Source: an uncultured Victivallales bacterium
Lineage (GTDB): Bacteria; Verrucomicrobiota; Kiritimatiellia; UBA8416
Direction of reading: 5' to 3'
NCBI GenBank assembly: GCA_964387425.1
Contig: CAYLXP010000004.1
Location: 4,246 to 68,245 of the forward strand
DNA length: 64,000 nucleotides
Part shown: piece by piece, positions 11,797-38,646 of the stretch
Layout of the letters: the number at the start of each line of letters is the position of its first letter
Numbering within the stretch: the stretch's first letter is position 1
Program-made: the position numbers and the translations under genes
Notes under the pieces: generated by a model
What the model saw: the letters and a program-made list of their open reading frames with translations, nothing else
What the model was told of the DNA's origin: nothing
Databases searched by the model: none

Positions 11797-11826
11797 TTGT
11801 CCTTAGACGCGGCATCCCCATATACT
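11797..11826 (+). promoter_or_regulatory. candidate sigma70-like promoter (TTGTCC-N18-TATACT) upstream of the FGE-fusion gene
   Basis: Found by eye about 85 nt upstream of the preferred ATG at 11911. The track's ORF start at 11797 is the TTG of this hexamer. Confidence 0.25.
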
Positions 11827-11910
11827 CTGCCTATGCTAAATGGGGTGTTTGCAGGAACGGTTGGCGATGGGGAAGTTGTGTCGACCTTCAGAGAGAAACG
11901 GATCTGGACT

Positions 11911-14900
11911 ATGAGAATTATCTTGATGATGGGTGTTTTGTGCGGGGCTGCCGTGATTTCGCAGGCAGCGGAGACGGTAAAGGGGCGGTATGTCCGCGTG
12001 GAGTTGCCGGGTGACGGACGCTATCTCTCCCTGTCGGAGGTGGAGGTCTTCTCGGGTCGCAAGAACATCGCTCCGAAAGGGAAGGCAACGCAGTCATCGC
12101 TCTGGGGTCGCGGCGTAGCGCAACTCGCGATTGATGGCAACACGTCGGGGGAATATGGCGACGGAACGATCACGCACACCGCGAAGAGCACCAACCCGTG
12201 GTGGGAGCTCGACCTGGGGCGGGAGACTGATGTCTCAAAGGTCACGGTTTGGAATCGCGCCAGCATCGGAGAGCGGCTAGACGGTTTTCGCTTGTTGGTG
12301 CTGGACGCCAGTCGCTCACAGACACTGACGGCTTCTGTTCCCAAGGCGGGTCGGAAGATGGATATCGCTACGGACGGAACCGTCAAGACGACGTCAGTTA
12401 AGACTGTGCCCAGCAAGAACTCCGCGGCAAAGGGGCTGGCCGCGCACATTGCCGTGTTTGATCCCGATGCCATGGTTCGTGCCATCAAGGACATGGCGGC
12501 AACCTGGCCGGAGCGTTTCAAGGACGTCGATGAGCTGTTGGCAGGAGTCGAGAAGTGCCGGGCGTTGAAAGATGATGCGTCAAAGGCGGAGGAGATTCTC
12601 GCCTTCCAACGCGAAGTCCTAACGCGCAACCCGCTTCTGGACTTTGATGAGCTACTGTTCGTTCGCCGTGACACCAAAATGTTCGGCAAGTCCCTGCCCG
12701 CTAACTGGCAGAGTAATTCAAGCATTTCGAAGACCGGCTACGACAACGAGATTGCTGTGCTGTCGATCCGTGAACCCGAGAAGACGCGTCAGCTTCACCG
12801 GCCTGACGGCGGGGCCTACGTCGGGGAGGTCGATCTTCATTTCAATGCCGACAAGATGCTCTTCTCATCCATTGGGGAGAATGGCGCCTGGCATGTGTTC
12901 GAAATCGGGGCGGACGGAAAAGGCCTGCGGCGTGTGACGCAGACAACCGAAGTGAACGTGAACAACTACGACCCCTGCTATCTTCCGGACGGACGCATCC
13001 TGTTCACCTCCACGGCTCCGATGGTCGCGGTGCCGTGCGTGAATGGAAACTCGCCGGTCGCGACGCTTTTCATCTCCGACAAGAACGGTGGGGACATGCG
13101 CCAGCTCTGTTTCGATCAGGAGCACAGCTGGAGTCCGCAGGTGATGGCCGACGGACGTGTTCTCTATCAGCGCTGGGAGTATGCCGACCTGGCGCACTCG
13201 AACTCCCGTATTCTCTTCACGATGAATCCTGATGGCACGAATCAGCGCGCAATCTATGGCTCCAACTCGTGGTGGCCGAACTCCTGTTTCTATGCCCGGC
13301 CTGTACCGGGGCATCCCTCCCTGATCGTGGGCATTGTGACGGGGCACCACGGATGCCGCCGGATGGGCGAGCTTGTGCTGTTTGATACCTTCAAGGGGTA
13401 CATGGAAGCCGACGGCGTGGTTCAGCGTATCCCCGGCTACGGCAAGCCGGTTGATCCCAAGGTCGCCGACCGACTCGTCAACGGTAGCTACCCGCTTTTC
13501 CTGCATCCATACCCTTTGAGTGACAAGTACTTCCTTGTCTCCGCTGAGATCTCGAAAGGCGAGTGGGGGATCTATCTTGTCGACGTCTTTGACAACATGA
13601 CGCTCATCAAGAGTGAGCCGGGCTACGCCTTGCTCGAACCCGTGCCACTGCAGAAGACCAAGATGCCTCCCGCGCGACCGGACAAGGTTAACCTGGAGAG
13701 CAAGGATGCCACGGTGTTTATCTCGGACATCTATGAAGGCCCGGGGCTTGAGGGCATTCCTCGCGGTGTGGTCAAGAAGCTGCGTGTCTACACCTACACC
13801 TTTGGATACAACCAGATCGGAGGCTTGCTTGGCACGATTGGCGCCGATGGCCCGTGGGACATGCGCCGCATTCTTGGGACCGTGCCAGTGGAGTCCGATG
13901 GCTCAGCCGCATTCACGGTTCCCGCGAACACGCCGCTTGCGCTCCAGCCTCTTGACGACGAGGGCAAAGCTCTGCAGGTGATGCGCAGCTGGTTTACCGC
14001 CATGCCCGGTGAGAACCTCTCCTGCATCGGCTGCCACGAGCCGCCCGACGCCGGCCCGCCCGTGCGCCGTTCCATCGCCGCGCAGAAAGCGCCCTCCAAG
14101 ATCACGCCATGGTACGGACCGGCCCGGAACTTCGAGTTTGCCCGCGAGGTGCAGCCCGTTCTCGACCGCTACTGCGGCGGCTGCCACGACGGGGAACCCC
14201 GCGACGACGGCAAACAGCTTCCTAGCCTGCGTGGAGACCGCAGTGTCAAGTTCGTGTCCAAAACACCGGGCAGCAGAGGGGCGACATTCTCGGAAGCTTA
14301 TGTCTCCCTGCACGGCTACCTGCGTCGTCCGGGTGAAGAGAGCGGCATGCGTCTGCATAGCCCGATGGAGTTCCACGCGGATAACACTGAGCTGTTCATG
14401 ATGCTCAACAGCGGCCATCACGGGGTGGAGCTTAGCGCAGAGGCCATGGACCGGCTCATCACGTGGTTCGATCTCAACGCGCCCTTCTATGGGCGCTGGT
14501 CCGAATATGGCCACACTCCCGCTGCGGCAAAGGAAGCGGAACGTGCCGAGATGCGTGCCCGCTACGCGAATGTCCATGAAGACCACGAGCACATTGATGA
14601 TGCTCCGCCATCCAAGGTGGAGTTCATCCGCCCCAAGCGCGTACAGCCCAAGGCGGAGGAGAAGGTCTCTTGCTCTGTAGCGCGGGCTCCGCGGGAAGAA
14701 GCCAGGACGCTGGATCTGGGTAACGGCGTCTCTTTGAGTCTGTCGTACGTGCCTGCAGGCAAGCTGTCGAAGGGGGCGAAGGCCGAGGAATTCAAGAGAG
14801 GCTTCTGGATGGGGAGCTACGAGATCACCAACGAGCAGTTCCGCCAGTTCGACCCGGCACACGATAGCATGGAGGAACCGCGGCACGGCTACCAGTTCGG

Positions 14901-15483
14901 CATTACCGGCTATCCCGTCAACGACCCCGACCAGCCGGCCGTGCGGCTTTCGTGGCAGCAGGCCGCCGCCTTCTGCCGGTGGCTCTCGGATAAGAGCGGT
15001 AAGAGCGTCTCGCTGCCTTCCGAGGCGCAGTGGGAGTGGGCTTGCCGCGCGGGGGCATCGACGCCGTTTAGCTTTGGCGAGCTCGACGCCGACTTCACCG
15101 AGTACGCAAACCTCGCGGACGAGACTCTAGTCTGGTTCATCGGCGATCCCTATACGCAGGATCCTGCTGCCGGCTACCAGAAATCCCTCAAGCGATACAA
15201 GGAGCTCAAGGGATCCGACAACGACTGGATTCCGCGCTCCGATCTGAACGACGGCGGTTTTGTTTCCGAGCCGGTTGGCAAGTACAAGCCCAACGCCTGG
15301 GGACTATACGATATGCACGGCAACGTTGCGGAGTGGACTGCTTCGGATGCGAACGGTCAAAAGATCGTGCGCGGCGGTTCGTGGTACGATCGTCCCAAGT
15401 ACGCCACAGCCACTTTCCGCCGTCCATATCGCGACTACCAGCGTGTCTACAACGTTGGATTCCGTGTCGTGGTGGAAGAGTAA
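11911..15483 (+). CDS. secreted multidomain protein: F5/8 type C domain, PD40/TolB-like beta-propeller, two CxxCH haem-c motifs, C-terminal FGE-sulfatase (SUMF1-like) domain
   Basis: A signal peptide MRIILMMGVLCGAAVISQAAE begins at ATG 11911; the track start at 11797 is a TTG. The discoidin-like stretch GRYVRVELPGDGRYLSLSEVEVFSG is followed by propeller-type repeats (…DGRILFTS…, …DGRVLYQRWEY…, …MNPDGTNQRAIYG…). Two CxxCH motifs, LSCIGCHE and YCGGCHDGE, lie about 45 aa apart. The C-terminal FGE domain contains GFWMGSYEITNEQFRQF, WEWACRAG and HGNVAEWT…GGSWYD. Confidence 0.75.
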   Translation: MRIILMMGVLCGAAVISQAAETVKGRYVRVELPGDGRYLSLSEVEVFSGRKNIAPKGKATQSSLWGRGVAQLAIDGNTSGEYGDGTITHTAKSTNPWWELDLGRETDVSKVTVWNRASIGERLDGFRLLVLDASRSQTLTASVPKAGRKMDIATDGTVKTTSVKTVPSKNSAAKGLAAHIAVFDPDAMVRAIKDMAATWPERFKDVDELLAGVEKCRALKDDASKAEEILAFQREVLTRNPLLDFDELLFVRRDTKMFGKSLPANWQSNSSISKTGYDNEIAVLSIREPEKTRQLHRPDGGAYVGEVDLHFNADKMLFSSIGENGAWHVFEIGADGKGLRRVTQTTEVNVNNYDPCYLPDGRILFTSTAPMVAVPCVNGNSPVATLFISDKNGGDMRQLCFDQEHSWSPQVMADGRVLYQRWEYADLAHSNSRILFTMNPDGTNQRAIYGSNSWWPNSCFYARPVPGHPSLIVGIVTGHHGCRRMGELVLFDTFKGYMEADGVVQRIPGYGKPVDPKVADRLVNGSYPLFLHPYPLSDKYFLVSAEISKGEWGIYLVDVFDNMTLIKSEPGYALLEPVPLQKTKMPPARPDKVNLESKDATVFISDIYEGPGLEGIPRGVVKKLRVYTYTFGYNQIGGLLGTIGADGPWDMRRILGTVPVESDGSAAFTVPANTPLALQPLDDEGKALQVMRSWFTAMPGENLSCIGCHEPPDAGPPVRRSIAAQKAPSKITPWYGPARNFEFAREVQPVLDRYCGGCHDGEPRDDGKQLPSLRGDRSVKFVSKTPGSRGATFSEAYVSLHGYLRRPGEESGMRLHSPMEFHADNTELFMMLNSGHHGVELSAEAMDRLITWFDLNAPFYGRWSEYGHTPAAAKEAERAEMRARYANVHEDHEHIDDAPPSKVEFIRPKRVQPKAEEKVSCSVARAPREEARTLDLGNGVSLSLSYVPAGKLSKGAKAEEFKRGFWMGSYEITNEQFRQFDPAHDSMEEPRHGYQFGITGYPVNDPDQPAVRLSWQQAAAFCRWLSDKSGKSVSLPSEAQWEWACRAGASTPFSFGELDADFTEYANLADETLVWFIGDPYTQDPAAGYQKSLKRYKELKGSDNDWIPRSDLNDGGFVSEPVGKYKPNAWGLYDMHGNVAEWTASDANGQKIVRGGSWYDRPKYATATFRRPYRDYQRVYNVGFRVVVEE

Positions 15484-18012: not shown

Positions 18013-19521
18013 TCAGTGTCGAGTCTTTGCCTTCTTGCCACCCTTGCCCTTGTTCGGAACCCACCGGAAGTCCTCACCCTCACAGACGAGTCGGATTTCC
18101 TTGCGTTTGGGACCCTTGCCTTGTGGTGCGGGGTCGCTCGGGATGATGGTTCCCATCCTCTTCTTGATGGGAGCATACTCCGGGTTTGCTGCAAGATTGT
18201 TCCATTCGTTGGGGTCGTTGCGTTGGTCGTAAAGCTCCTCGCCATCAGGGCGCGAGATGTAGCGCCAGTTGCGGTTGACGACACTGTACTGATCGTGATC
18301 GGTGGTGATGACCATGCGGTCCTTGGCCCCGTCGGGATTGCCAAAGACGGGAACCAGGCTCTTCCCGTCGATATCGGGATTGGCAGGTAGCTGGCAGAGA
18401 TCGGTCAGGGTCTTGTAGGTGTCGATCAGCCCAACCGTAACGTCGAGCTTCTTGCCTTTCGGAATGCCGGGGCCGGCCCAGATGAACGGCACGTTGGTCG
18501 TGCGCTCCCAGAGCGTATGCTTGGCCCAGCGGGTCTTCTCACCAAGGTGGTAGCCATTGTCGGACCAGAGCACGACGACCGTGTTGTCAGCATAGGGCGA
18601 CGCCTCGAGTGCATCGAGTACACGGCCCAGCATGGCGTCGGTATACGTGCAGGCGGCAAAGTACCCCTGCATCGCCTTCTTCCACAGGCCGTGCTCGACG
18701 AGAGGATCATGCACCTTGCGTCCGCGGCCCTCGGTCTGGCGGCGGATTGCCGGCGGGAGGTCGTCAAGATCGTCCGCCTTGAAGGGCGGCAATTGGATAC
18801 TCTCCAGCGGATACATGTCGAAGTACTTCTTCGGTGCGTAGTTAGGTTTGTGTGGTGCGTAGGTCCCGAATGCGAGGAAGAAGGGCTTGTCGTGCTCTTG
18901 TTTCAGGAAGTCTGCAGCCCAGTTAGCGCATAGCGTGTCGGCCATCCTCTCTTCGTCTTCGTTCGGCATGGCGAAGTGGTCAAACTCCGGCCAGCCGGTC
19001 ACCTTGCCGGTCTCCGCCAGCGGACGCACTGCCTTGGCGTCGATCGGCGCCCCGGGATCCCATGAGCCCAGGCGCCAGCCCTTCTGCTTGAGATCCTCGT
19101 TCCAGATGTACCAGTAGTCGAAGCCGCGCAGGTCGACGAAACCCTGCATGTGGTGATAAACCTTGCCGCCTCCGTAGACCTTGTAGCCGTTGGCCTTGAA
19201 GTACTGGGGAATATCCATGTGCTTCGGAATGTTGTACATGTGCGGTTCTTCGCCGTAGAGGCCGGAGTTGAAGGGCTGCAGACCGGTCATGATGGCTGTA
19301 CGCGACGGCGTGCAGTAGACACCCGGAGCATGGGCATTTGTGAACACGGTTCCGCGCGCCGCGAGCTTGTCGAGGTTAGGCGACTTCACCCGCGGGTCGC
19401 CCATCGCGTTCATCATGTCGTTCCAGTCATCAACAACAAGGAAGAGAACATTGGGGTGGGGGGCGGCTTGGGCTGCTATTCCGAGAAGAAGTACCAGTAA
19501 CAGGCTAAGTCTCACCATCAT
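18013..19521 (-). CDS. arylsulfatase (type I sulfatase, FGly-dependent), secreted
   Basis: A signal peptide is followed by NVLFLVVDDWND (metal-binding start) and the sulfatase signature C-x-P-x-R within VYCTPSRTAIMTGL, so it needs Cys-to-formylglycine maturation. Confidence 0.9.
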   Translation of the reverse strand: MMVRLSLLLVLLLGIAAQAAPHPNVLFLVVDDWNDMMNAMGDPRVKSPNLDKLAARGTVFTNAHAPGVYCTPSRTAIMTGLQPFNSGLYGEEPHMYNIPKHMDIPQYFKANGYKVYGGGKVYHHMQGFVDLRGFDYWYIWNEDLKQKGWRLGSWDPGAPIDAKAVRPLAETGKVTGWPEFDHFAMPNEDEERMADTLCANWAADFLKQEHDKPFFLAFGTYAPHKPNYAPKKYFDMYPLESIQLPPFKADDLDDLPPAIRRQTEGRGRKVHDPLVEHGLWKKAMQGYFAACTYTDAMLGRVLDALEASPYADNTVVVLWSDNGYHLGEKTRWAKHTLWERTTNVPFIWAGPGIPKGKKLDVTVGLIDTYKTLTDLCQLPANPDIDGKSLVPVFGNPDGAKDRMVITTDHDQYSVVNRNWRYISRPDGEELYDQRNDPNEWNNLAANPEYAPIKKRMGTIIPSDPAPQGKGPKRKEIRLVCEGEDFRWVPNKGKGGKKAKTRH

Positions 19522-19595: not shown

Positions 19596-21680
19596 CTAGC
19601 GGCAGAGCGCATATTGTCTTGGCTCAGCTTGGCCCTCTAGAACCGAGAGAGCCCCGGCGGCCATCGCTTCCATTTCCATGCCGTCCTTGAAGATGATGAT
19701 CTGGGCCAAGTGCCCAACGCGCTTCTTCAGAGTGGCGACGATGCGGTCTGAGCTTGCCATGTTGCCCGTGAGAACGATGGCGTCGACGGGGCCGTCAATG
19801 GCGATGTGCATGGCCCCGATCTCCTTGGCAATCTGGTAGATCATGGCGTAAACAGCCTTCTCGGCCTCTTCATCTCCATCCTGGATGCGCTTCTCAATCT
19901 CCGGTAACGAGTCTTCTCCGATGTAGGACACCAGGCCCGCGCGTTTGGTCAGCTCTTGCTTGAGGGCGACCTTGTCAAACTCGCCGCTGTAGCACAGGTC
20001 GATCAACTCGTTCTGGGGCAGTGTGCCGGCGCGCTGCCGCGTGAAGGGCCCTTCGCCGAGCAGTGCGATGGTGTTGTCCACGATTCTTCCATGTTTGACT
20101 GCTGCCACGGAGATGCCATCCCCGATGTGCGCAAGCAGGAAGCTGGATCGATCGAATGGGCGGCCAATCATGGCAGCGGCTTTTTGGGCCGACGCCCGAA
20201 TGCTCAGAATGTGCCCGGTGCTCTTGCGTTCGATCGGGGCATAGCCGGAGTAGCGGGCCTCCTCCTTTAGTTCATCCGAAACGACTGGATCGACAGAGAA
20301 CGCGGGGATCTTGTAGTGGTGCGCGAGCCGCGCGGCAATCGGAATGCCCAGGTTGGATGCATGATCCATCTCGGCATAGTCACGCACGGCGCTGACTATG
20401 TCCTTCTCTTCGTGGACCTCGCCATTCTCAACCGAGCAGACCTGGTATACGCCGCCCTTGATGCGCTGGTTCTCCCTGTTGAGGAAACCGCCGCGTCCCA
20501 CGACGGCGTCTAATGCGGGTAAGTCGTCGGTCAGAAAGCCCTGGATTTGCTCGACATAGCGTTCGACCTCTTCGTCCATTGCGCTGCCTGTGAGTCCGGA
20601 AACGTGAGGCCTTGCCACCTCGAACTTCTTCAGGCAGTGGCGGTTCTCGAAGAGGGCGAGTTTCGTGGATGCGGCGCCCGGGTTGATGGTGAGGATGTGG
20701 TGGGCCTCCCGCACCTCGGCGGCAGGCGAAGCGCCCGCTTGCTCGGCCTGCTTCCGGAGGTAGTTTGAGTAGATACAGGCGAGGGCAATTGAATCGATCT
20801 TTGATCGTTCGGGATCCGACCGCGATGAAATCACGTAAGGGGTCTTGATGCCCACCGTGACACAGGCCATGCGGGCCGTCTGTTTTGCCACCATACGCAT
20901 GAGCATCTTGTACATGATGTTGGCGGCATCCAGGGTGGGGTTCACGAGAATATCCGCCTGGCCGGCAACCTGGCGCATGGGGGAGTCTGCGGGGCCGTCC
21001 AGTTTCTTCAAGCGGACGGATTCGGGGTCGACGGAAAGGTCGAAAGACAGGGGCCCGTACACAACAGCGTTATCCCAGTGCGCGCTCGCCAGTTCATGGG
21101 CGAGTACCGTGGAGGGGAGGGCCTGCATCACCTTCTCGTTGCCGGCCAGGAGTGCCACCCTGGGCAAAGGAAGGTTCAGGGCGCACTGTGCAACTTCGAC
21201 GGCATTGTCGATCAGTCCAGTCATGCGACTGTAGTTGAGAATGGCCGACACGCCCGGGTCGGTCATGACCATGGGGACTCCATCGCGAATACAGTCCGCC
21301 TGGAAGACCGTGGCGAGTGACATGGTATCGCGTGTGCGAAGCTTCACGAGTTGGCGATTCAGAATAGGAGTGGAGATATTCCCTTTCTGGATGACATTCG
21401 TTCTGCCAGATCGGGCAAGCTCCAGGATGGTCTCTGCGGTCTGCTCCTGGGAATCCGTACCCACAATATCGGCGGTGGGAATTTCGAGCTCCAACCGGGA
21501 TGCCGCTGCAAGCATGTCTTTCTCATTGCCGACAAGAACGCACTGCTTGACATACGGTTTGTCCCGCACGTTGCGATAGAGAAGTAGGTCGCCTTCGCGA
21601 TCCCCGCCCGCAATCGCGATTGTCTGAGGGGTCAGTGATTCGGCGATGCTTTCGAATTGCGCAATTTCTGTGGCGGCCAT
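19596..21680 (-). CDS. fused phosphate butyryl/acetyltransferase (PTA_PTB domain) - butyrate kinase (Buk) protein, copy 1
   Basis: The N-terminal roughly 320 aa is Ptb/Pta-like (…DPGVSAILNY…VISSRSDPERSKIDSIALAC…). The C-terminal roughly 370 aa is butyrate-kinase-like (ILTINPGAASTKLALFEN…IVLTGNMASS…). The track start at 21845 adds a Pro-rich 55-aa extension and would overlap the ACT gene by 109 nt; ATG 21680 (MAATEIAQF) is preferred. Confidence 0.8.
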   Translation of the reverse strand: MAATEIAQFESIAESLTPQTIAIAGGDREGDLLLYRNVRDKPYVKQCVLVGNEKDMLAAASRLELEIPTADIVGTDSQEQTAETILELARSGRTNVIQKGNISTPILNRQLVKLRTRDTMSLATVFQADCIRDGVPMVMTDPGVSAILNYSRMTGLIDNAVEVAQCALNLPLPRVALLAGNEKVMQALPSTVLAHELASAHWDNAVVYGPLSFDLSVDPESVRLKKLDGPADSPMRQVAGQADILVNPTLDAANIMYKMLMRMVAKQTARMACVTVGIKTPYVISSRSDPERSKIDSIALACIYSNYLRKQAEQAGASPAAEVREAHHILTINPGAASTKLALFENRHCLKKFEVARPHVSGLTGSAMDEEVERYVEQIQGFLTDDLPALDAVVGRGGFLNRENQRIKGGVYQVCSVENGEVHEEKDIVSAVRDYAEMDHASNLGIPIAARLAHHYKIPAFSVDPVVSDELKEEARYSGYAPIERKSTGHILSIRASAQKAAAMIGRPFDRSSFLLAHIGDGISVAAVKHGRIVDNTIALLGEGPFTRQRAGTLPQNELIDLCYSGEFDKVALKQELTKRAGLVSYIGEDSLPEIEKRIQDGDEEAEKAVYAMIYQIAKEIGAMHIAIDGPVDAIVLTGNMASSDRIVATLKKRVGHLAQIIIFKDGMEMEAMAAGALSVLEGQAEPRQYALCR

Positions 21681-21736
21681 TTGAGTCACCTTCCCGTTCG
21701 AAGCCCCTTGCCGTTCAGGCTGAGGCTTTGCTGCCC

Positions 21737-22219
21737 CTACAGAGCGGTGATCGCGTAGACCTGGTCGACCAGGATCCCCTGCTTCTTCAGGCGGTGCAGG
21801 ATCGGGTCGAGCTGGTTTGGGGATCCCCCCAGGAAATACGTCCATCCCGTAGAATCGTTGTACATGAGTTCGCAGGTCAGGAAGGAACTCTCGCCTGCGA
21901 CGTCTTTCGGGGCCAGTTTGCGCTTGGTTTTGGTCACCACCGTCTTGCGGAGGTTGTCGCCGAGGTAGGGATGCTCTTCAACCTTCTTGACCTTGGATAG
22001 GCGACTCAGGATTCGCTTGATCGTCGCCTTTTCCTCTTCGGTACAAGTGAACGTAACCAGAACGGTGCCACCGCAGCCGGACGACGTGTCTGACCCGTGC
22101 CCTACAACCGAGTCGAGCGAGATGCTGCGGTTCGAGAACGCGGAGGCGATGCTAGTCAGGGCCCCTGCGCGGTCATCTACCCAGATGCGAATAAACCAAT
22201 GCTTGATTGCCTTGCTCAC
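21737..22219 (-). CDS. ACT-domain protein
   Basis: IRIWVDDRAGALTSIASAFSNRSISLDSV is an ACT-type regulatory fold motif. The protein is 160 aa, and its stop overlaps the upstream Ptb-Buk copy 2 start by 4 nt. Confidence 0.55.
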   Translation of the reverse strand: MSKAIKHWFIRIWVDDRAGALTSIASAFSNRSISLDSVVGHGSDTSSGCGGTVLVTFTCTEEEKATIKRILSRLSKVKKVEEHPYLGDNLRKTVVTKTKRKLAPKDVAGESSFLTCELMYNDSTGWTYFLGGSPNQLDPILHRLKKQGILVDQVYAITAL

Positions 22220-24336
22220 GACGAAACCCTCCTGTTCAAACTGTATTGCAGCGGCTTCTCCCTGCCGCTGAGAACCCGGCAGGCCCCCCTGGCCATGGCC
22301 ACCATTTCGAGCGATTCCCGGTATACTACGATGGGCCCCAGCGATGCGATGCGTCGACGGATACCACGGAGCAGGAGTGATGAGCGTACCATGCCGCCGG
22401 TCAGCACGATGGCTTCGACCTTGTGCTCCACGGCAGCGGCCATGGCCCCGATGTCCTTGGCTACCTGGTAAGCCATCGCTTCTACGACCCGCGCGGCCTT
22501 CTTATCACCACTTAGCGCTAATTCCCCAATTCTCTCCAGGCGATCGTCGCCGAGGTAAGAAACCAGTCCGCCCCGCTTGGTCAGTTCAGTGATTAGCTCG
22601 GCCTTGGACATGCCGCCGTCGTAGCACAGGTCGATCAGCTCCTTCTGCGGCACTCCCCCCGTCCTCTGTGGCGTGAAGGGACCCTCTCCGAGGAGCGCGA
22701 TGGTGTTGTCGATCATGCGTCCCTTGCGAATAGCTGCAATTGTGATTCCACCACCCAGATGCCCCACAACCACGTTTACCGCTTTCGGGTCGCGCTGGTT
22801 GTCCTCGGCAAACTGGTGCACGGCTGCCTTGATGCTCAGCGCGTGCGCCGTGCTCTTGCGCGTGATTCCGGCGTAGCCTGAGAGTTCTGCCTCGGGACAG
22901 AATTCATCAACGACCACGGGGTCCACGGCGTAGGCCGGCAGGGTGAGTCGCCGCGCATATGCCGCGGCCATGGGAATGCCCAGGTTGGATGCATGATCCA
23001 TCTCTGCGAACTCGGTTACCCCGCGCACGATGTCTTCCTGTACGCGCACCTTGTTCCGCTTGACGTCGGCCACCAGGTAGGTTCCGCCCTTGAGCTTGCC
23101 TTTCGGGCGTTTGAGGAATCCGCCGCGGCCCACGATGGCCGTGAGTCCTCGCACCTTGTGCTTGCGCAGAAAGGCGTCGACTTGTTCGATGCGTTCATCG
23201 ACTTCGGCCTGCAGGTCGCTGCCCGGCAGGAGCTTCGATGCGTAGGAGAGTTCCTGTTCGTGAAGGCAGGTGTCATTCTCGAAAACGGCTACCTTGGTGG
23301 ACGTAGAGCCAGGATTGATCGTCAGGATTCTCTGCGCTTTGGCAGCCTTCCGCTTTGCTGTCGCAACCCTTTCGCGGTGTCCCGTGCGTTCTGCATAGAC
23401 ACAGCACAGCGCGATTGAGTCGAGTTTGGTCTCGAGCGGGTCGGAGCGCGAGAGGATGCCGTAGGGGACTTCCACCCCCGTTGTGATTCCGGCCATGGAG
23501 GCATCCCCGTACTTGGCCATGGCCATGATGGTCTTGTAGACGGCGTTGGCCGTGTCGATCCCCGGGCATACCAGCACATCCGCCCGACCTGCCACCTGGC
23601 GCGCATTCCGGGAGGCAGGCATGCCCTTGCAGGAAACCGATTCCATATCTGTGGCCAGGTCAAACGACAGCGGACCGCACACGATCATGTCATTCCACTT
23701 GCGCTCGGCCAGTGCCGCGGCCATCACGGAAGAGTGAAGGGACGGGATAACTTTCTCGTTTGCGGAGAGCAGTGCAACACGCGGTTTCTCGATCCCGGTG
23801 ACGACCCGGCAAACGTCGGCGGCGCTCTCAATGAGGTCGATCAGGCGCCCGTAGGTGCATTCGGTTGTCACACCCGGGTCGGTAAGAAACATGGGGCGCC
23901 CGTCGGCCAGGGGTGCGGCGTCAAACATCGTCACCTGGCCCATGGTGTTGCGGACGCGCAGCTTGAGAATAGCCCGGCTGAGGGTGGGGGTGGAGATGTC
24001 GCCCTTGATGATGATGTCGGCACGACCCTTTCGTACCAAATCAACGGTCTTGGCGGCGGTTTCCTCGTCCGAGGCCGTGTTGAGAATATGGGATTCCGGA
24101 ACGTCAATCCCGACCTTGTGTGTGGCAACCCGGATACGGTCGGCATCGCCGATCAGCAGGCAGTCGCGGATGATGCCGTGGTCCCGGGCCGACTCGAGGA
24201 GCCTCAGGTCATCCTCTCGATGGCCGCCGGGGATGACGACGTTTTTCGGCGCCATCGCCCCGGCAACTTCGAGTAGATCAGAAACACCGGCGACCTTGGG
24301 AAGGTCGCCGGTGTTCCGGTTGTTCGTTTGAGTCAT
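22216..24336 (-). CDS. fused phosphate butyryl/acetyltransferase - butyrate kinase protein, copy 2
   Basis: It has the same architecture as copy 1: a Ptb-like N-terminal half, then RILTINPGSTSTKVAVFEN…AIVLTGGMVRSSLL in the Buk-like C-terminal half. It is a paralog of copy 1. Confidence 0.8.
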   Translation of the reverse strand: MTQTNNRNTGDLPKVAGVSDLLEVAGAMAPKNVVIPGGHREDDLRLLESARDHGIIRDCLLIGDADRIRVATHKVGIDVPESHILNTASDEETAAKTVDLVRKGRADIIIKGDISTPTLSRAILKLRVRNTMGQVTMFDAAPLADGRPMFLTDPGVTTECTYGRLIDLIESAADVCRVVTGIEKPRVALLSANEKVIPSLHSSVMAAALAERKWNDMIVCGPLSFDLATDMESVSCKGMPASRNARQVAGRADVLVCPGIDTANAVYKTIMAMAKYGDASMAGITTGVEVPYGILSRSDPLETKLDSIALCCVYAERTGHRERVATAKRKAAKAQRILTINPGSTSTKVAVFENDTCLHEQELSYASKLLPGSDLQAEVDERIEQVDAFLRKHKVRGLTAIVGRGGFLKRPKGKLKGGTYLVADVKRNKVRVQEDIVRGVTEFAEMDHASNLGIPMAAAYARRLTLPAYAVDPVVVDEFCPEAELSGYAGITRKSTAHALSIKAAVHQFAEDNQRDPKAVNVVVGHLGGGITIAAIRKGRMIDNTIALLGEGPFTPQRTGGVPQKELIDLCYDGGMSKAELITELTKRGGLVSYLGDDRLERIGELALSGDKKAARVVEAMAYQVAKDIGAMAAAVEHKVEAIVLTGGMVRSSLLLRGIRRRIASLGPIVVYRESLEMVAMARGACRVLSGREKPLQYSLNRRVSS

Positions 24337-24362: not shown

Positions 24363-24986
24363 CTAGGCCGCAGCAGCTTCAGATCCTGATCCTGCTGTCA
24401 CCTTTGCTTCGTACGCACCGCGCCAGGCGACGGTGATGAAGCCGAAGATCTGGCCCACGATGCAGCCGATCATTTCCGGGACGGCTACGGACATGAATCC
24501 GGGCATGTCGTGAGCGATACCGATCTTGACCGCTTCGCCGGCTTCGTTGAGGCCAACCCCGCCGCCAAGTGTCATGATGGCGAAGAACATGCCTGATCCG
24601 ATGAAGAGGCCGGGAATGAAGTCGAACATAGGCACGCGTTCCAGGCTGATCGCGGGAATAACGATGATGAAGACCGCGAGAGCATAGGACAGGTAGTAGT
24701 TCGGCGCCTCGGCTGAGCCCAGGGGAACCGCCAGCGCATCACCCATCAGCATGATGATGATCGAGGCGATGATACCGCTGAGGTACGCGAGGACGACCTT
24801 CACACCGTTCTTGGGTGTGCACCCGGCGGCGAAGTAGACGGCCCACGCCTGGAACGTGACGAAGATGAGAAGTCCCGGGCCTCCGACGGCCGCGGTTGAG
24901 CCCGGTACGAACTTGGCAATCAGCATGAGAATTGCCGCCTGAACGCCCAGCAGAATAGGGATGATGATGAATTTACCAAATGACAT
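24363..24986 (-). CDS. multi-pass inner-membrane protein (about 6 TM), unknown function, possibly a small transporter or DUF1097-like
   Basis: It is highly hydrophobic (IIIPILLGVQAAILMLIAKFV…, …VVLAYLSGIIASIIIMLMG…, …GLFIGSGMFFAIMTLGGG…) and tightly packed between Ptb-Buk 2 and the LsrF-like gene. Confidence 0.5.
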   Translation of the reverse strand: MSFGKFIIIPILLGVQAAILMLIAKFVPGSTAAVGGPGLLIFVTFQAWAVYFAAGCTPKNGVKVVLAYLSGIIASIIIMLMGDALAVPLGSAEAPNYYLSYALAVFIIVIPAISLERVPMFDFIPGLFIGSGMFFAIMTLGGGVGLNEAGEAVKIGIAHDMPGFMSVAVPEMIGCIVGQIFGFITVAWRGAYEAKVTAGSGSEAAAA

Positions 24987-25000
24987 GATTGTTCTCCTTT

Positions 25001-25879
25001 TTACTTAGATGCTTTGAGGTCGTTAAACATAGTGAAGGCGTCTGCCGGTGTCGCACCGTCATGCACCACATGCCCGACAGCCTTGATCATGGCAATCGGA
25101 TCTTCCGACTGGAACACGTTGCGCCCCATATCAACGCCCGCAGCGCCATCGTTGATGGCCTTGTAGGCGAGCTCGAGCGCTTCGTCCTCGGGAAGCTTCT
25201 TGCCGCCCGCGATCACAATCGGAACCGGACAGCAGGCCGTAACCTTCTCGAAGCCCTCCGTGTAGTAGGTCTTCACGATGTTCGCCCCGTTCTCCGCGCA
25301 GATGCGCGACGCAAGACCGAAGTAGCGTGCATCGCGCGCCATGTCCTTGCCAACCGCCGTGACACCCATCACGGGGATCTCGAAGCGCTGCCCGAGGTCG
25401 GCCAGCTCGTAGAGGTTGGCGATCGTCTGCGCTTCCATGTCGGGATCGCCAATCGCCAGCATGATCGCCATCGCCGAGGCGTTCAGACGCACGGCGTCTT
25501 CCACGTCGATGATCACGTTGTCGTTCAGCTGCGTCAGGATCGAGGTGCCGGCGTCAGAGCGCAGGCAGATCGGCTTGTTGTAGGTCGGCGGGATGCAGGT
25601 GCGGATGATGCCGCGTGCGCCCATCAGGCAGTCTGCATGCTCAACCAGCGGGACGATGTTGAGGTCGATACGCTCCACGCCGGAGGTCGGCCCCATGATG
25701 AACCCGTGGTCAAACGCCAGCATGACCGTCTTGCCGGTGTCGGGCCGGAAGATTCGGGACATGCGGTCCTTCATCCCCCAACCCATGTTGTCGCACCCTT
25801 TCAGGTGGAATCCCTGGCTTTCGGCCGGCTTGTCCAAGCCGAAATCCTTGCCGTCTCTGATGTCGTCTAAATCCGCCAT
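25001..25879 (-). CDS. lsrF: LsrF-type DhnA-family class I aldolase/thiolase (3-hydroxy-5-phosphonooxypentane-2,4-dione thiolase-like)
   Basis: The 292-aa length matches LsrF. The N-terminus [18 protein letters not shown]…HLKGC…WGM…[18 protein letters not shown] closely matches E. coli LsrF as I recall it (MADLDDIKDGKDF…[12 protein letters not shown]…). [28 protein letters not shown](V/I)FQS and IAMIKAV are also conserved. Confidence 0.7.
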
Positions 25880-26514
25880 TACTCTAGTCCTTTCTTCAGT
25901 CCCTCAAATAGAAGCGCCATTGAGGTCGCCCCGGGGTCAACGTGTCCGATTGACCGCTCCCCGATGTTCTTTGCCCGGCCGAACGTGGCCTGCATTTCCT
26001 TCGTCGATTCAGCCCCCTTGACGGCAGCTTCCGCACCAGCAGCCAGTGCCGTAAGAACACAAGGCTGTGCGTCTGCCGATTCCCGAAGGGCGGCCAGTGC
26101 CGGAACGAGCGTGTCGATCATGGTCTTTCCACCCACTTCAGCCCGGGTGTTCTTCCGGAGCTTTGCGACGCCTGACTCCAGCATGGAGACAAACGTGGTG
26201 CAGTCGATGGGACCTTCTTCAGGTGTGGCATTGCTCATGCCGATGAAGAGCGAACCATACAACGGGCTGGTAGAACCGGCGTCCGTCGACATGGCTGCCC
26301 AGCCGATCGCTTTGAGCAACGTTTTGAGCTCATTGCTCTCGTCCTTTTCGATGGTATCAATGATAGCGTCAGCCACCTTTGAGACCGCCGTCCCGTGATC
26401 ACCATCACCGGTAGCCGAGTCGAGCTGGGACAGGTGGTCCCGGTTCTCTTTGAGCAATCCGGCTGCCGTCTGAAGCATACTGACGACAGAGCTGTAATCT
26501 ACTGTTTCCGGCAC
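25879..26514 (-). CDS. dhaL: dihydroxyacetone kinase ADP-binding subunit DhaL
   Basis: The 211-aa length and [20 protein letters not shown]…, an all-helical DhaL-type sequence, match DhaL. Its stop overlaps the LsrF start by 1 nt. Confidence 0.8.
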
Positions 26515-26595: not shown

Positions 26596-27597
26596 CTAGC
26601 GCGTTACCCAGAACGGCGCGTCCGACGGAGCCTTCATCAGTTCGACCAGCTCGTCATCCAGTTTCGCGGCGCACATCTGGAATCCGCCCATTTCCTGAAC
26701 GGTGAGGTACTCACCGACCAGTGCGTGGGCGACGGTTATGCCCTGCGACTCGGCGTAGTTCTTGGTCGCACGGAACACGATGAACTGTTCCATCAGCGTG
26801 GTTGCGCCGGCGCCGTTGATCATGAGCATGATCTTGTCGCCGCTTGCGCAGTTGGCGGCAGGCAGAACCTGCGTGGCCATCTTGACTGCCGTCTCGTCAG
26901 CCGTCAGCATCTTCGAGCTACCCGTGCCGGCTTCGCCGTGCTGGCCCATGCCGATCTCCATCTCGTCGTCCGCGAGGTCGAAAATCGCGCCCCCGGACTG
27001 CGGGTGGGTTGCGGTCTTGAGCGCAACCGCCAGCGTGGCCATGTTGTCGTTGATCTTCTCGGCCACGGCGTAGACTTCGTCCAGGCTCTTGCCGGCCTCG
27101 GCCGCGGCGCCAGCCACCTTGTACAGCGGAATGCAGCCGGCCAGGCCGCGCTTGTCCTCTATCGGAGCGTCGGCGCCCGGTGCAATGTCTTCGTGCGTCA
27201 GGATCATCTTGACGTTGATGCCTTCTTCTTCCGCCATTTCCATGGCCATATTGCCGCTCATGACGTCGCCTTCGTGATTCAGCACCACGAAGAGGATACC
27301 GGCGTCGCGCTTGAGCAGGCGCATGGCTTCGACGACTTTCGGGGCACCCGGGGCGGCGAAGACGTCGCCGACAACCGACGCGTCCAGCATGCCTTCGCCC
27401 ACGAAACCGCTCAGGGCGGGCTCGTGACCGGCGCCGCCGAGCGTGATGATCGCGACTTTGCTCTCATCCTTCGGGGTGGCACGCATGACGATTTTGTCGG
27501 ATACCAGTTTGACCTGCTCCGGGTTGGCGCCGCAGTAGCCTTCCAGCAGTTCGGCGGTGAGGTTGTCGGGATCGTTGATGAATTTCTTCATTGGCAT
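26596..27597 (-). CDS. dhaK: dihydroxyacetone kinase substrate-binding subunit DhaK
   Basis: The 333-aa length, GGAGHEPALSGFVGEGMLDASVVGDVFAAP (the GHEP hemiaminal-His motif) and FVVLNHEGDVM match DhaK. No DhaM-like gene is in the operon. Confidence 0.85.
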   Translation of the reverse strand: MPMKKFINDPDNLTAELLEGYCGANPEQVKLVSDKIVMRATPKDESKVAIITLGGAGHEPALSGFVGEGMLDASVVGDVFAAPGAPKVVEAMRLLKRDAGILFVVLNHEGDVMSGNMAMEMAEEEGINVKMILTHEDIAPGADAPIEDKRGLAGCIPLYKVAGAAAEAGKSLDEVYAVAEKINDNMATLAVALKTATHPQSGGAIFDLADDEMEIGMGQHGEAGTGSSKMLTADETAVKMATQVLPAANCASGDKIMLMINGAGATTLMEQFIVFRATKNYAESQGITVAHALVGEYLTVQEMGGFQMCAAKLDDELVELMKAPSDAPFWVTR

Positions 27598-27624: not shown

Positions 27625-27969
27625 TTAGTATGCGGATCCAGCGTCGCCACCGGACATTTCCATGAACTCGATCGGGCAGCCTTCGCCATCGACGATGAAC
27701 GCGATGCGGAGCGACTCGTTAACGGCGACGGGATCGAGAATGACCTTCTGTCCCGCAATGGCCGCGTCGAGGTCTTCGACGATATAGGCGATATGCGTGT
27801 GATCCTGGATTTCGCGAGGCATTTCGCAGTCGGCGTCGAAACGCAACCACTCAATGTTGTGTTCGCTGTTCGCAAAATCGGTGAGATGGAGCTTCATACC
27901 CTCGGCGTATGTCTCGCCCGCTTTGGACTCTGTTGTGGGGATTCCCACATGGCTGAATGTCTTCGTCAT
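27625..27969 (-). CDS. small VOC (glyoxalase/bleomycin-resistance-like) fold protein
   Basis: The N-terminus FSHVGIPTTESK… and IAYIVEDLDAAI resemble the VOC betaalphabetabetabeta start motifs. The protein is 114 aa and tightly linked to dhaK. Confidence 0.4.
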   Translation of the reverse strand: MTKTFSHVGIPTTESKAGETYAEGMKLHLTDFANSEHNIEWLRFDADCEMPREIQDHTHIAYIVEDLDAAIAGQKVILDPVAVNESLRIAFIVDGEGCPIEFMEMSGGDAGSAY

Positions 27970-27995: not shown

Positions 27996-28742
27996 CTAGT
28001 GACCCGTGCTCTTGAATTCCATGTCCGGCTTACTGAAGTGCACGTGATTGTGGTACGTGGCACCTTCCGTGATGATCGCACCGTCCGGCCCCGCGATGAT
28101 GCCATGCCAGGCTTCGGGATCCTGGAGCTTGTACATGATGTTCTTCTTCGCATCGCGATGGGTGATGTATTTCGACTTGAACCACTTCTCGCCATAGCCC
28201 CAGGGACGCTGGTCTTCGGGAAGGTCGCTGATCTTCATCTCGTCGCCGTGCTTGTACTCACCGTAGAAGCGAACGTCGCCGTAGCGAACGTGCCAGGCTT
28301 CCATTTTCGGCGGCAGGTCTTCCGGGCCGCCCAGGTGGGCGTGCTCGGGCAGCGTCTGTCCGGGCAGCAGGTAGATTTCGTGCAGCAGGTAGCCGAAGTG
28401 TGCATCCTTGAACTTGCCCTTGTACTTGCCGGCGCCGGTGGACTTGTACTCGCCCTTTTCGTTCAGCCAGAAGATGCCGCCCATGCCCAGCGCCAGGATG
28501 TTGCCCTGGTTGAAGTCGCAGACCCAGAATTCATCGGTCTTGAGTACGTCCGGAATCGGGTAGTTGAAACGCTCAAACATGTCGTAGTAGGCCTGCTTGA
28601 CCTCCTCGATATTCATCTTCCCGTCATCATAGAAGCTCTCCACGCATCCTCCTTTTCCAACCTTTGGCGCGGTTGCACACCCCGAAAGGATTCCCGCTAC
28701 TCCGACTGCTACCGACATTGCTACGACATGCCTCTTCTTCAC
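27996..28742 (-). CDS. lipoprotein, D-lyxose ketol-isomerase-like cupin
   Basis: LLPGQTLPEHAHLGGPEDLP and WHVRYGDVRFYGEY resemble the YdaE-type lyxose isomerase motifs (FPGQTCPEHRHPP, FRCRYGKVYLY). The preferred start is GTG 28742, 5 nt after AAAGGAGGG. It gives a classical lipoprotein signal, MKKRHVVAMSVAVGVAGILSGC. The track start at 28817 lacks an RBS and leaves only 26 nt to the divergent AraC gene. Confidence 0.55.
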   Translation of the reverse strand: MKKRHVVAMSVAVGVAGILSGCATAPKVGKGGCVESFYDDGKMNIEEVKQAYYDMFERFNYPIPDVLKTDEFWVCDFNQGNILALGMGGIFWLNEKGEYKSTGAGKYKGKFKDAHFGYLLHEIYLLPGQTLPEHAHLGGPEDLPPKMEAWHVRYGDVRFYGEYKHGDEMKISDLPEDQRPWGYGEKWFKSKYITHRDAKKNIMYKLQDPEAWHGIIAGPDGAIITEGATYHNHVHFSKPDMEFKSTGH

Positions 28743-28843: not shown

Positions 28844-29782
28844 ATGATGTTTCTTCTTGTGTTTTTTGACATGGATGTGCAGCCTGTTGGCGGTATGGCG
28901 GAGCGACAAGAACAGATTCGGGTTTCCACCGTCGTTATGAACGGCCTGGTGGAGGAAATTGGCCAGACACTTGGGGTGGGGGTGTTGAATTGTGCACCCG
29001 CGGAACCGACGGTGGAGGTCATTGCCGAGGTAGAGGGTACGGTCGGGTTCTGCTTTCATATGAACCGTGGACTGCAGATTCCTCTACATACGTCGGCTCC
29101 CGGCAAAGCGATTGTGGCATCTCTACTGCCTGATGATCGTGAGGATGTGATCTCGCGGATGTCCTTCAAGGTGTTCACCGACTACACGATCTCGACCCCT
29201 GGTGCATTCAGAACGGAGCTCAAGGAGGTTAGTCAGCTTGGATACTCCATCGATCGGAATGAGCAGGTCCTGAATTGCCACTGTATCGGTGTGCCCGTCT
29301 GCTTTCCTGGCGAGACCAACGTGGCGGCCCTCTGGACCACGGGACCGGCCAACATGCTGCCCGAGGACTCTTTTCCCGAGGTCGCCCGGCTCCTTGCGAA
29401 GGGCGCTGATGAGATCGAGGCGGCCCTGGGTGGAGCGAGCAGGGAGATAAACGCCGAGTACATACACCACGTGGTTGCCCGTGCGATCCAGATGATGGAT
29501 GTGACGCTGAATCAGCGGATGGACATGAAGCAAGTGGCGGCCGACCTCTGCGTGAGTTACTCCTGGTTCCGCCAGGCCTTCAAGAAACGCACCGGCTTGA
29601 GCCCGAATCAGTACCATATGCAGCGGCGGATCGAAAAGGCGAAGGAGCTACTCGCCAGCCCGCATGTAAAGGTCAAGGACGTCTCCGCGCAATTGGGCTT
29701 CTCCGATGAGTGCTACTTCTCCACCCGCTTCAAACAGCAAACCGGCCAGAGCCCGCAGGCATATCGGGATGGGCTGAGCTGA
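28844..29782 (+). CDS. AraC-family transcriptional regulator with N-terminal ligand-binding domain (start possibly ATG 28895)
   Basis: The C-terminal AraC HTH reads …MKQVAADLCVSYSWFRQAFKKRTGLSPNQYHMQRRIEKAKELL…LGFSDECYFSTRFKQQTGQSPQAYR. The gene is divergent from the catabolic operon. Confidence 0.75.
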   Translation: MMFLLVFFDMDVQPVGGMAERQEQIRVSTVVMNGLVEEIGQTLGVGVLNCAPAEPTVEVIAEVEGTVGFCFHMNRGLQIPLHTSAPGKAIVASLLPDDREDVISRMSFKVFTDYTISTPGAFRTELKEVSQLGYSIDRNEQVLNCHCIGVPVCFPGETNVAALWTTGPANMLPEDSFPEVARLLAKGADEIEAALGGASREINAEYIHHVVARAIQMMDVTLNQRMDMKQVAADLCVSYSWFRQAFKKRTGLSPNQYHMQRRIEKAKELLASPHVKVKDVSAQLGFSDECYFSTRFKQQTGQSPQAYRDGLS

Positions 29783-30572: not shown

Positions 30573-30990
30573 GTCGTCTTCCTCTGCCGGACAAGATGTC
30601 CGGCCTACCAAGGAAGTTTCCATGATGTATGATCCGGCGGAGGCAAGACGCCTCGCGCCTGAAACTGGCCTCGAGAGCTACTCGGACTGTCGCATCGGAA
30701 GACGATAGCGGGCGACGAGAGCGCTAGACGATTGATATGATCACTACTCGTTATCCGTTCTCGCCCCCTATCGTCAACCGGTTCCCCTTCTTGTTGGCTC
30801 CATTTCGATCCCGTGTCAAATCGCACAAGTCGATTTATCATAACCCTCATTTTCTGTTGAAGTCCCTTGCTCTACACTGCTCGTGATGAGACGGAGAGAG
30901 TAGTGCAAGCTTCCAGCTTGCGAGTTCACAAGCAAGATGCTTGTGCTACACTATTGGACTACAAGTGAACTGACTGGAGATAAACAGGAC

Positions 30991-38432: not shown

Positions 38433-38646
38433 GTGTTTGTCAGGTAACCCCGGGCCGTCTCGGCCCGAGGGCGGATCGGCTATACGGATGAGATATCCTC
38501 GGCAGCGGTTGCTGATCACATGATGCCTCGCGTGGATCTGCGCTGGCCCCGGGACGGGGCCGCGCTACTGGGAAGTCGGGAACGTTGGAGAATGGACGGG
38601 AATAACGCTCATGAAGCGTGCATGGCTGAACAGAGGAGGATGCAAG

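Follow-up and report, generated by a model that had tools for sequence, protein, structure and literature searches.

The 64,000-nucleotide stretch of DNA analyzed here (hereafter the window; contig CAYLXP010000004.1 of GenBank assembly GCA_964387425.1, positions 4,246 to 68,245) derives from an uncultured Victivallales bacterium and carries on its minus strand two genes, F1 and F2, each encoding a phosphate butyryltransferase (Ptb) joined to a butyrate kinase (Buk) in a single polypeptide, with a gene for a small ACT-domain protein between them. Judged from sequence comparisons, F1 and F2 are old paralogues that have been brought together and not a recent tandem duplicate, because they belong to different deep clades and each is closer to orthologues elsewhere. 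With a probability of about 0.6, we favor a reading in which both fusions serve a sugar-breakdown operon and recover ATP from acyl-CoA made by its LsrF-type thiolase, F1 being gated by the ACT protein and F2 ungated, and in which the pair arose through insertion of a cassette.

The proteins of the window were searched by tblastn against 87 fetched loci, and neighbor-joining trees were built on BLOSUM distances, without support values; the relatives compared are metagenome-assembled genomes (MAGs) or metagenome contigs throughout. In the whole-protein tree, F1 and F2 sit in two deeply separated clades, A and B, and trees of the Ptb halves alone and of the Buk halves alone recover the same two clades, again with F1 in A and F2 in B. 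The agreement of the half-trees implies that the fusion is older than the split and that domains have not been swapped. The two proteins are 46% identical across 690 residues with an unbroken frame. The nearest relatives of F1 within clade A reach 66-74% identity in MAGs and 91% in a metagenome cluster; the nearest MAG relatives of F2 within clade B are found in Roseibacillus (locus L056, 72%), in Kiritimatiellae and Lentisphaerae (L052 and L054, 64%) and in Thermoguttaceae (L082, 54%), and the F2-type protein of a near relative of the window (L096) is 87% identical to F2. Residues that separate the clades strictly (at least 90% of clade A and at least 85% of clade B) are limited to G163S and I260L, and a looser, one-sided criterion yields 32 clade-A-specific positions, 20 of which lie in the Ptb half.

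The clades also differ in gene context. Wherever enough sequence is available downstream, the fusion of a clade-A locus is directly followed by an ACT homologue, whereas none of the clade-B loci, whose members are all PVC (Planctomycetes-Verrucomicrobia-Chlamydiae) bacteria, has an ACT gene. The clade-B fusion is usually the last gene of a cupin-VOC-DhaK-DhaL-LsrF-DUF1097 operon, and the F2 orthologues of L056, L052, L054 and L082 directly follow DhaK-DhaL-LsrF, again with no ACT gene. As a separate observation, one MAG (MFD02416.bin.2.262) contains two clade-A fusion-ACT loci (L030 and L058) that are not in tandem, a case of paralogy within clade A. Another clade-A fusion with its ACT gene (L045) lies on a contig binned as a Bathyarchaeia archaeon, reflecting either horizontal transfer or a binning error.

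The origin of the pair can be read from closely and more distantly related operons. In L096, the operon consists of the cupin, a 114-residue protein, DhaK, DhaL, LsrF, DUF1097, F2 and a sulfatase, and no gene separates DUF1097 from F2; compared with the window, its genes are 94% (cupin), 89% (114-residue protein), 94% (DhaK), 90% (DhaL), 97% (LsrF), 87% (F2) and 87% (sulfatase) identical. The 3' end of DUF1097 and about 45 nt ahead of the F2 start codon align between the two genomes, so that they differ by a clean F1-ACT cassette. In genomes further removed (L097, L099/L100, L052 and L054), the operon likewise has a clade-B fusion only, which makes insertion in the lineage of the window likelier than deletion elsewhere. 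On this comparison, the F1-ACT cassette was more likely inserted between DUF1097 and F2 of a clade-B operon, with no local duplication. A single-cell genome of Verrucomicrobiota (L010) shows the converse arrangement of DhaK, DhaL, LsrF, DUF1097, an F1-type fusion and ACT, with no F2; set against L096, it indicates that either clade can fill the same operon position. The window thus looks like an intermediate carrying both clades, and the shared position argues for the same substrate of F1 and F2. One gene of the operon stands apart in this comparison: DUF1097 is only 64% identical between the window (24363-24986, minus strand) and L096 (3351-3947), the other operon genes being 87-97% identical, and the insertion may have come with, or disturbed, DUF1097.

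Both fusions are genuine in-frame Ptb-Buk proteins, as the sequence-only reading of this DNA had proposed, on the evidence of Pfam, NCBIfam and structure alignments and of the conserved residues kept in both copies. In each, a PTA_PTB domain is followed by an Acetate_kinase domain, and the ACT domain lies in the 160-residue protein (Table 1). PF01515 (gathering score 24) is passed by F1 with 97.2 bits and by F2 with 57.7 bits, and the Acetate_kinase score of F1 is 59 bits. For the Buk halves, both the butyrate kinase equivalog TIGR02707 (cut-off 289.1; F1 333.3 bits, F2 320.1 bits) and the subfamily model NF002834 (cut-off 222; F1 373.2 bits, F2 356.1 bits) are passed, and the structure of Thermotoga maritima Buk2 (1saz/1x9j) aligns end to end with the Buk half of F1 (E 6e-69). 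The Ptb models TIGR02706 (cut-off 410.5) and NF004472 (399) are failed by both proteins, at 166 bits for F1 and 140-141 bits for F2, and the Ptb structure of Clostridium acetobutylicum (7vg9) aligns with residues 30-315 of F1 (E 1e-37). By these scores, the Ptb halves form a divergent Ptb-like subfamily and are not equivalogs of clostridial Ptb.

Table 1. Features of the window, with positions counted from its first letter.
Feature	Coordinates	Strand	Details
F1, clade-A Ptb-Buk fusion	22216..24336	(-)	706 aa; Pfam, NCBIfam and PDB matches, trees
F1 Ptb (phosphate acyltransferase) half	23386..24285	(-)	aa ~18-317; NCBIfam Ptb models aa 19-317, 7vg9 aa 30-315
F1 inter-domain linker	23332..23385	(-)	aa ~318-335; family alignment columns ~395-420, variable in length and sequence
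F1 Buk (acyl kinase, ASKHA) half	22234..23331	(-)	aa ~336-701; 1saz/1x9j aa 336-701, NF002834 aa 334-698
ACT protein, putative F1 regulatory subunit, two-domain IlvH-like	21737..22219	(-)	160 aa, GTG start
F2, clade-B Ptb-Buk fusion without its own ACT partner	19596..21680	(-)	694 aa; Ptb aa ~6-307, Buk aa ~329-691
DUF1097 membrane protein	24363..24986	(-)	207 aa; PF06496 52.8 bits; same operon position in L010, L096, L099
LsrF orthologue, CoA-dependent thiolase of class I aldolase fold	25001..25879	(-)	NF006081 452.3 bits (cut-off 297)
DhaL (Dak2) kinase subunit	25879..26514	(-)	PF02734 150 bits
DhaK (Dak1) kinase subunit	26596..27597	(-)	PF02733 344 bits
114-aa protein without family, conserved with the operon	27625..27969	(-)	faint glyoxalase/VOC similarity
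D-lyxose-isomerase-like cupin, first operon gene	27996..28643	(-)	215 aa; PDB 2y0o E 6e-5, PGQTxPEHxH metal motif kept
Sulfatase	18013..19521	(-)	PF00884 174 bits; 74 nt downstream of F2; same position in L096, 87% identity
Divergent regulator	28844..29782	(+)	IclR_C ligand domain with AraC-type helix-turn-helix (HTH_18) replacing the usual IclR one
HZS_alpha ("middle domain" of hydrazine-synthase-alpha) proteins with C-terminal FGE-sulfatase domain, two	11797-15483, 30937-34515	(+)	~1200 aa each; one also with F5/8 type C domains
Double alpha-L-fucosidase + CBM35 protein	38611-41739	(+)	1042 aa, two alpha-L-fucosidase stretches
Open reading frame	55781-62278	(-)	2165 aa

The junctions of the three genes are of two kinds. 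The stop codon of F1 and the start of the ACT gene share the sequence GTGA, with AGGAGG upstream, and a 56-nt spacer separates the ACT stop from the F2 start; the translational coupling that had been proposed for the ACT gene between the two copies therefore holds for F1 and ACT but not for ACT and F2. The longest open reading frame (ORF) of F2 (19596-21845, 749 residues) runs into the ACT gene, but the true start is most likely the ATG at 21680, because AAGGTG lies 6 nt upstream, independent gene calls give 694 residues and orthologues have 694-707. At least eight contigs from different metagenomes of the Joint Genome Institute (JGI), retrieved through look-up of a 99%-identical ACT protein, show identical order and gene lengths for F1 (706), ACT (160) and F2 (694), confirming that the linkers are continuous with no frameshift. 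The full order shared by these contigs is DhaK, DhaL, an aldolase-fold protein, DUF1097, the 706-residue fusion, the 160-residue ACT protein, the 694-residue fusion and a sulfatase.

Residues known or expected to be catalytic are retained in both fusions. The conserved residues of C. acetobutylicum Ptb are K186, D217, K228, N250, K254, S279, R280, D282 and E285 (PMC9706017). The equivalents of the first eight (K195, D226, K237, N264, K268, S296, R297 and D299) are invariant across the family alignment, F2 included. In the Buk half, NPGxxS, RGG, HASN, VDP, H498, HxGxG, R558 and E677 are likewise invariant in the alignment and in F2, and would correspond, by motif position, to the catalytic residues of acetate kinase. 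F2 departs from at least 95% of its relatives at three positions only, and nothing in the sequence of either copy indicates a pseudo-enzyme.

The fused architecture, which had been described as unusual, is so for Firmicutes; elsewhere it defines a large conserved family in many phyla. Searches with F1 returned 457 clusters at the 90% level, the best 120 of which are all about 700 residues long with both Pfam domains, and searches with F2 returned 234 clusters of fusions of about 700 residues; where these relatives are named in databases, the name is "butyrate kinase" only. A scan of one genome per GTDB species gave 246 confirmed stretches in more than ten phyla, all of them MAGs, spanning Planctomycetota, Verrucomicrobiota, Kiritimatiellia, Lentisphaerota, Brocadiia, Nitrospirota (Dissulfurispiraceae and Nitrospiraceae), Spirochaetota, Fibrobacterota, Hydrogenedentota, Chloroflexota and others. 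In an alignment of 31 sequences, the mean column identity is 60%, and the linker is the sole strongly variable segment besides the termini. Matches in Lachnospiraceae/Coprococcus (34% identity) were considered as fused relatives and rejected, since stop codons fall inside the alignment and ptb and buk are separate adjacent genes there; stops within fusion alignments occur in Lachnospiraceae and two other loci only. Five Ptb-only genes (L076, L079, L083, L084 and L087) nest within clade A, and by their placement in the tree these stand-alone genes are secondary fissions.

The ACT protein passes PF01842 (gathering score 27) with 29.3 bits over residues 10-74. Its homologues form 657 clusters of proteins of 158-164 residues that are 53-60% identical across phyla, with long invariant stretches (DRAGALTSIASAFSN, VVGHG, EEHPY and LRK). 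A profile scan of a library of 1.84 billion proteins returned 15 representatives at E <= 1e-30 and very few clusters at the 50% level, from which the family is judged to be very compact; the scan added a Ptb-ACT ORF and no new family links. The family profile matches Escherichia coli IlvH (2f1f) over its full length (residues 10-154 against 5-148) and also the small subunit of plant acetohydroxyacid synthase (AHAS). An AlphaFold2 model (mean predicted local confidence, pLDDT, 82) contains two βαββαβ units, and its top 20 Foldseek matches in the PDB are AHAS regulatory subunits, with template-modeling (TM) scores of about 0.5-0.59. The IlvH models TIGR00119 (15.9 bits; cut-off 56.9) and NF008864 (20.8 bits; cut-off 119) are failed by the ACT protein, and the label "acetolactate synthase small subunit" that homologues carry at JGI is therefore not justified.

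In genomic context, the ACT gene follows a Ptb-Buk fusion or a Ptb gene in 61 non-redundant loci, and not an AHAS catalytic subunit. Its start lies a median of 16 nt from the stop codon of the gene before it, and overlaps of 4 or 8 nt between the two genes occur in 17 of these loci. Where Ptb stands alone, ACT comes next and Buk is absent within 8 kb. These Ptb-ACT pairs lacking Buk, the Ptb-ACT ORF and the concentration of clade-A-specific positions in the Ptb half tie the ACT protein to the Ptb half. A patch in the N-terminal region of Ptb (LVESARDHGI, residues 46-55 of F1) is clade-A-specific and kept in the Ptb-only proteins too. The ACT protein is thus predicted to be a ligand-binding regulatory subunit docking on the Ptb domain of F1; the role of regulator that it had been given from sequence alone is plausible. 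As observations in their own right, the Ptb-only loci L079, L083, L084 and L087 (MAGs of Planctomycetota, Anaerolineales and Phycisphaerae) encode a Ptb of 326-328 residues followed by ACT, with a CAP-domain protein next in L079 and L083. A metagenome protein of 500 residues (P0289) contains a clade-A-like Ptb and ACT in one ORF, with a linker methionine at the usual ACT start, and is either a true fusion or the result of a lost stop codon; its AlphaFold2 model from a single sequence (pLDDT 40, predicted TM score 0.31) is unusable for the Ptb/ACT interface. In four MAGs of Phycisphaerae, Sedimentisphaerales and Pirellulales (L038, L050, L060 and L075), only about 75-100 ACT residues are matched downstream of the fusion, and these loci may form a subclade with a shortened, single-domain ACT partner.

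The operon upstream of F1 supplies the metabolic context. E. coli LsrF structures match the LsrF of the window over its full length (E 4e-108), with the context of the Schiff-base lysine (IVKTYY) kept, and the surrounding genes are DhaK/DhaL, cupin, DUF1097 and Ptb-Buk; no lsr operon (LsrK, LsrG, LsrACDB or LsrR) was found around it. The cupin is conserved upstream of DhaK in L052, L054, L096, L097 and L099. For the 114-residue protein, which several PVC genomes also have upstream of DhaK, Pfam and PDB searches gave sub-threshold glyoxalase-like hints only; together with the cupin, it may stand in for an LsrG-type isomerization. A promoter/terminator scan found fewer sites than in shuffled controls, and within the cluster the minus strand had no terminator-like one, a result compatible with one operon but not proof of it. 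In the wider family, DhaKL-LsrF adjoins the fusion in at least 12 of about 73 non-redundant loci, which are drawn from both clades and differ in gene order; in L038, L060 and L075, DhaK-DhaL-LsrF comes after the fusion, not before it. The general role of the family is probably broader than the LsrF pathway, coupling short acyl-CoA to ATP formation in anaerobes.

In the proposed route, an isomerase and the DhaKL kinase would generate a phosphorylated keto-sugar, which LsrF would cleave with CoA to dihydroxyacetone phosphate (DHAP) and a short acyl-CoA, either acetyl-CoA or a close relative of it. The Ptb half would then convert acyl-CoA to acyl phosphate, and the Buk half would use acyl phosphate and ADP to yield the free acid and ATP, repaying the ATP spent by DhaKL. 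The ACT protein would be docked on the Ptb half of F1 as a subunit that senses a ligand and regulates the enzyme, and the same step would be catalyzed by two isozymes, an allosterically gated F1-ACT and an ungated F2. According to the passage of PMC6410053 that cites Marques et al. 2014, LsrF converts a phosphorylated 2,4-diketone (P-HPD) and CoA to DHAP and acetyl-CoA. The LsrF context suggests that an acetyl or other short acyl group, rather than butyrate, is the substrate. The ATP-yielding direction is favored in this operon because both clades are repeatedly linked to the acyl-CoA-producing LsrF.

Several points weigh against this route. We infer the substrate, the direction of flux and the contact between F1 and the ACT protein, all three. 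A cupin aldose-ketose isomerase and a dihydroxyacetone-type kinase alone do not yield the 2,4-diketone needed by LsrF. The Ptb halves lie far under the equivalog cut-offs, and their acyl preference may differ from butyryl or acetyl. At the position of Glu285 of C. acetobutylicum Ptb, F1 and the rest of clade A retain glutamate (E302), whereas clade B, F2 included, has R, K or A, and F2 alone has G640N in the LTGG motif; from these replacements, the kinetics or the specificity of F1 and F2 could differ. Residues of the IlvH valine site are replaced in the ACT protein (N11 by D16, N29 by S34), D16 and S34 being invariant in the ACT family, and most clade-A modules lie in unrelated neighborhoods.

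Other explanations of the trio are less probable. The sequence-only reading had described the fusion as duplicated in tandem with an ACT regulatory protein between the copies and suggested that the two might differ in acyl specificity (acetyl/propionyl against butyryl/branched, for example); the adjacency of two paralogous fusions fits a local duplication around a shared regulator, and later divergence in specificity would agree with the change at E302 and at a few other conserved positions in clade B. Such a history is nevertheless unlikely: F1 and F2 are placed in different deep clades by the whole-protein tree and both half-trees, the orthologues of each are far closer to it than the neighboring copy, and in the near relative L096, F1-ACT is missing from this very site. 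Nor does the ACT protein behave as a shared element, being a fixed downstream partner of clade-A fusions only, and either clade alone serves the same operon elsewhere (L010 versus L096 and L099), which speaks against two specificities. The regulatory division of labor suggested alongside them is the best fit to the data. It is similarly improbable that the fusions run in the activating direction (acid and ATP to acyl phosphate to acyl-CoA), scavenging short or branched acids as fatty-acid primers or carbon, with the ACT protein sensing branched-chain amino acids. Ptb and Buk are reversible, and Geobacter has been proposed to activate butyrate in this way (PMC2700814); moreover, the ACT protein is structurally closest to the AHAS small subunits, which bind valine, and clade-A modules mostly stand alone, in neighborhoods of biosynthetic or mixed character. 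The recurrent linkage of both clades to the LsrF thiolase, a producer of acyl-CoA, points the other way, and the residues of the IlvH valine site are not conserved.

That one copy, most likely F2, is an impaired pseudo-enzyme or a scaffold that hetero-oligomerizes with F1 is very improbable. F2 does have the unique G640N in an LTGG motif conserved in at least 95% of relatives, together with NPGAAS and HIGDG variants, and Ptb and Buk are oligomeric enzymes (PMC9706017), but all family-invariant catalytic positions are kept in F2, and comparable variants (NPGATS, NPGSMS, HLGSG and LTGA) also occur in members that are sole copies. In many genomes, an F2-type protein is the sole fusion of the same operon, so this clade is functional alone. 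There is hardly any chance that a chimeric contig or a frameshift has falsely joined ptb and buk: the general risk of metagenome assemblies is all that speaks for such an artefact, and both the repetition of arrangement and gene lengths in the JGI contigs and the hundreds of full-length fused homologues from independent sources contradict it.

Compared with the clostridial ptb-buk operon (C. acetobutylicum Ptb, 7VG9; T. maritima Buk2, 1SAZ), the fusions show the same two folds in the same order, with the conserved residues kept. The clostridial genes are separate, whereas here one polypeptide with a short variable linker is made, with about 34% identity to Lachnospiraceae ptb/buk; the Buk half of F1 has an insertion relative to T. 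maritima Buk2 at residues ~425-437, and no counterpart of the dedicated ACT partner of clade A is known for the clostridial enzymes. The ACT protein resembles IlvH/IlvN in its length of about 160 residues, in its combination of an ACT and an ACT-like second domain and in being a separate polypeptide encoded immediately downstream of the catalytic gene, but it accompanies a Ptb-Buk fusion or a Ptb encoded alone, not a thiamine diphosphate-dependent enzyme. The Pta-AckA pathway performs the same sequence of acyl-CoA to acyl phosphate to acid and ATP with enzymes of the same superfamilies (PTA_PTB and ASKHA acetokinase). F1 and F2 nonetheless belong to other subfamilies, with AckA and Pta models far below their cut-offs, and are fused. 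E. coli-type Pta has an N-terminal regulatory domain; F1 would be regulated through a separate ACT subunit. The likeness to the E. coli Lsr pathway for autoinducer-2 (LsrK kinase, LsrG isomerase, LsrF thiolase) lies in the LsrF orthologue and in the succession of kinase, isomerase and thiolytic cleavage to DHAP and acetyl-CoA. The kinase of the window is DhaK/DhaL and not the FGGY-type LsrK, no LsrG was detected in the operon, which has the cupin isomerase and the 114-residue protein instead, and neither an Lsr transporter nor LsrR accompanies it. The operon ends in Ptb-Buk fusions, by which acyl-CoA could be turned into ATP, and lies among sulfatase and fucosidase genes.

Literature searches, within the searchable literature, returned no described Ptb-Buk fusion, ACT partner of butyrate kinase or DhaK-LsrF pathway; papers on Geobacter (PMC2700814) and on wetlands treat ptb and buk as separate genes only. 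Measured against that literature, four features are new: the fused architecture as a conserved and widespread family, the IlvH-like partner obligatory for one clade, the repeated association of fusions with DhaKL-LsrF, and the presence of a partnered and a partner-less paralogue side by side in the window. Ptb, Buk, ACT regulatory subunits and LsrF are already known as kinds, databases already list the proteins, though generically named, and nothing here implies new chemistry. Metagenome surveys take Ptb and Buk as markers of butyrate fermentation, and the fused family, automatically annotated as "butyrate kinase" in PVC bacteria, Nitrospirota, Spirochaetota and other lineages, mostly uncultured, is probably misread there, both in its substrate and because one gene represents both steps. 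An allosterically regulated complex of phosphotransacylase and kinase, a type with no description in the searchable literature, is indicated by the fixed IlvH-like partner, and the recurrent DhaKL-LsrF linkage suggests energy conservation from thiolytic sugar cleavage, by which LsrF-type thiolases would gain a role beyond the disposal of a quorum signal. The window itself is a natural experiment, with a regulated and an unregulated isozyme together and a near relative that has only one.

The neighborhood of the operon contains sulfatases, FGE-sulfatase proteins and a double alpha-L-fucosidase (Table 1), and a fucosidase also lies near the DhaKL-LsrF-fusion operon of L099. The fucosidase and sulfatases suggest degradation of sulfated fucans, from which the sugar of the operon would derive. 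A wider reading is possible but rather doubtful: cupin-DhaKL-LsrF-DUF1097-PtbBuk would make up a route, so far undescribed, by which marine PVC bacteria that degrade polysaccharides phosphorylate a (deoxy)keto-sugar of sulfated fucans and cleave it thiolytically to DHAP and a short acyl-CoA, with the fused Ptb-Buk harvesting the energy of the thioester so that the balance in ATP is neutral or positive, and the clade-A fusion with its IlvH-like subunit would form an allosteric hetero-oligomeric enzyme coupling acyl-CoA to ATP, the main module of substrate-level phosphorylation in many uncultured anaerobes (Planctomycetota, Nitrospirota, Spirochaetota and Hydrogenedentota). The sulfatase downstream of F2 is possibly the last gene of the operon. 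A regulator of the IclR_C/HTH_18 type also adjoins the operon in L088, a locus of the same population, and L099 has a plain IclR regulator.

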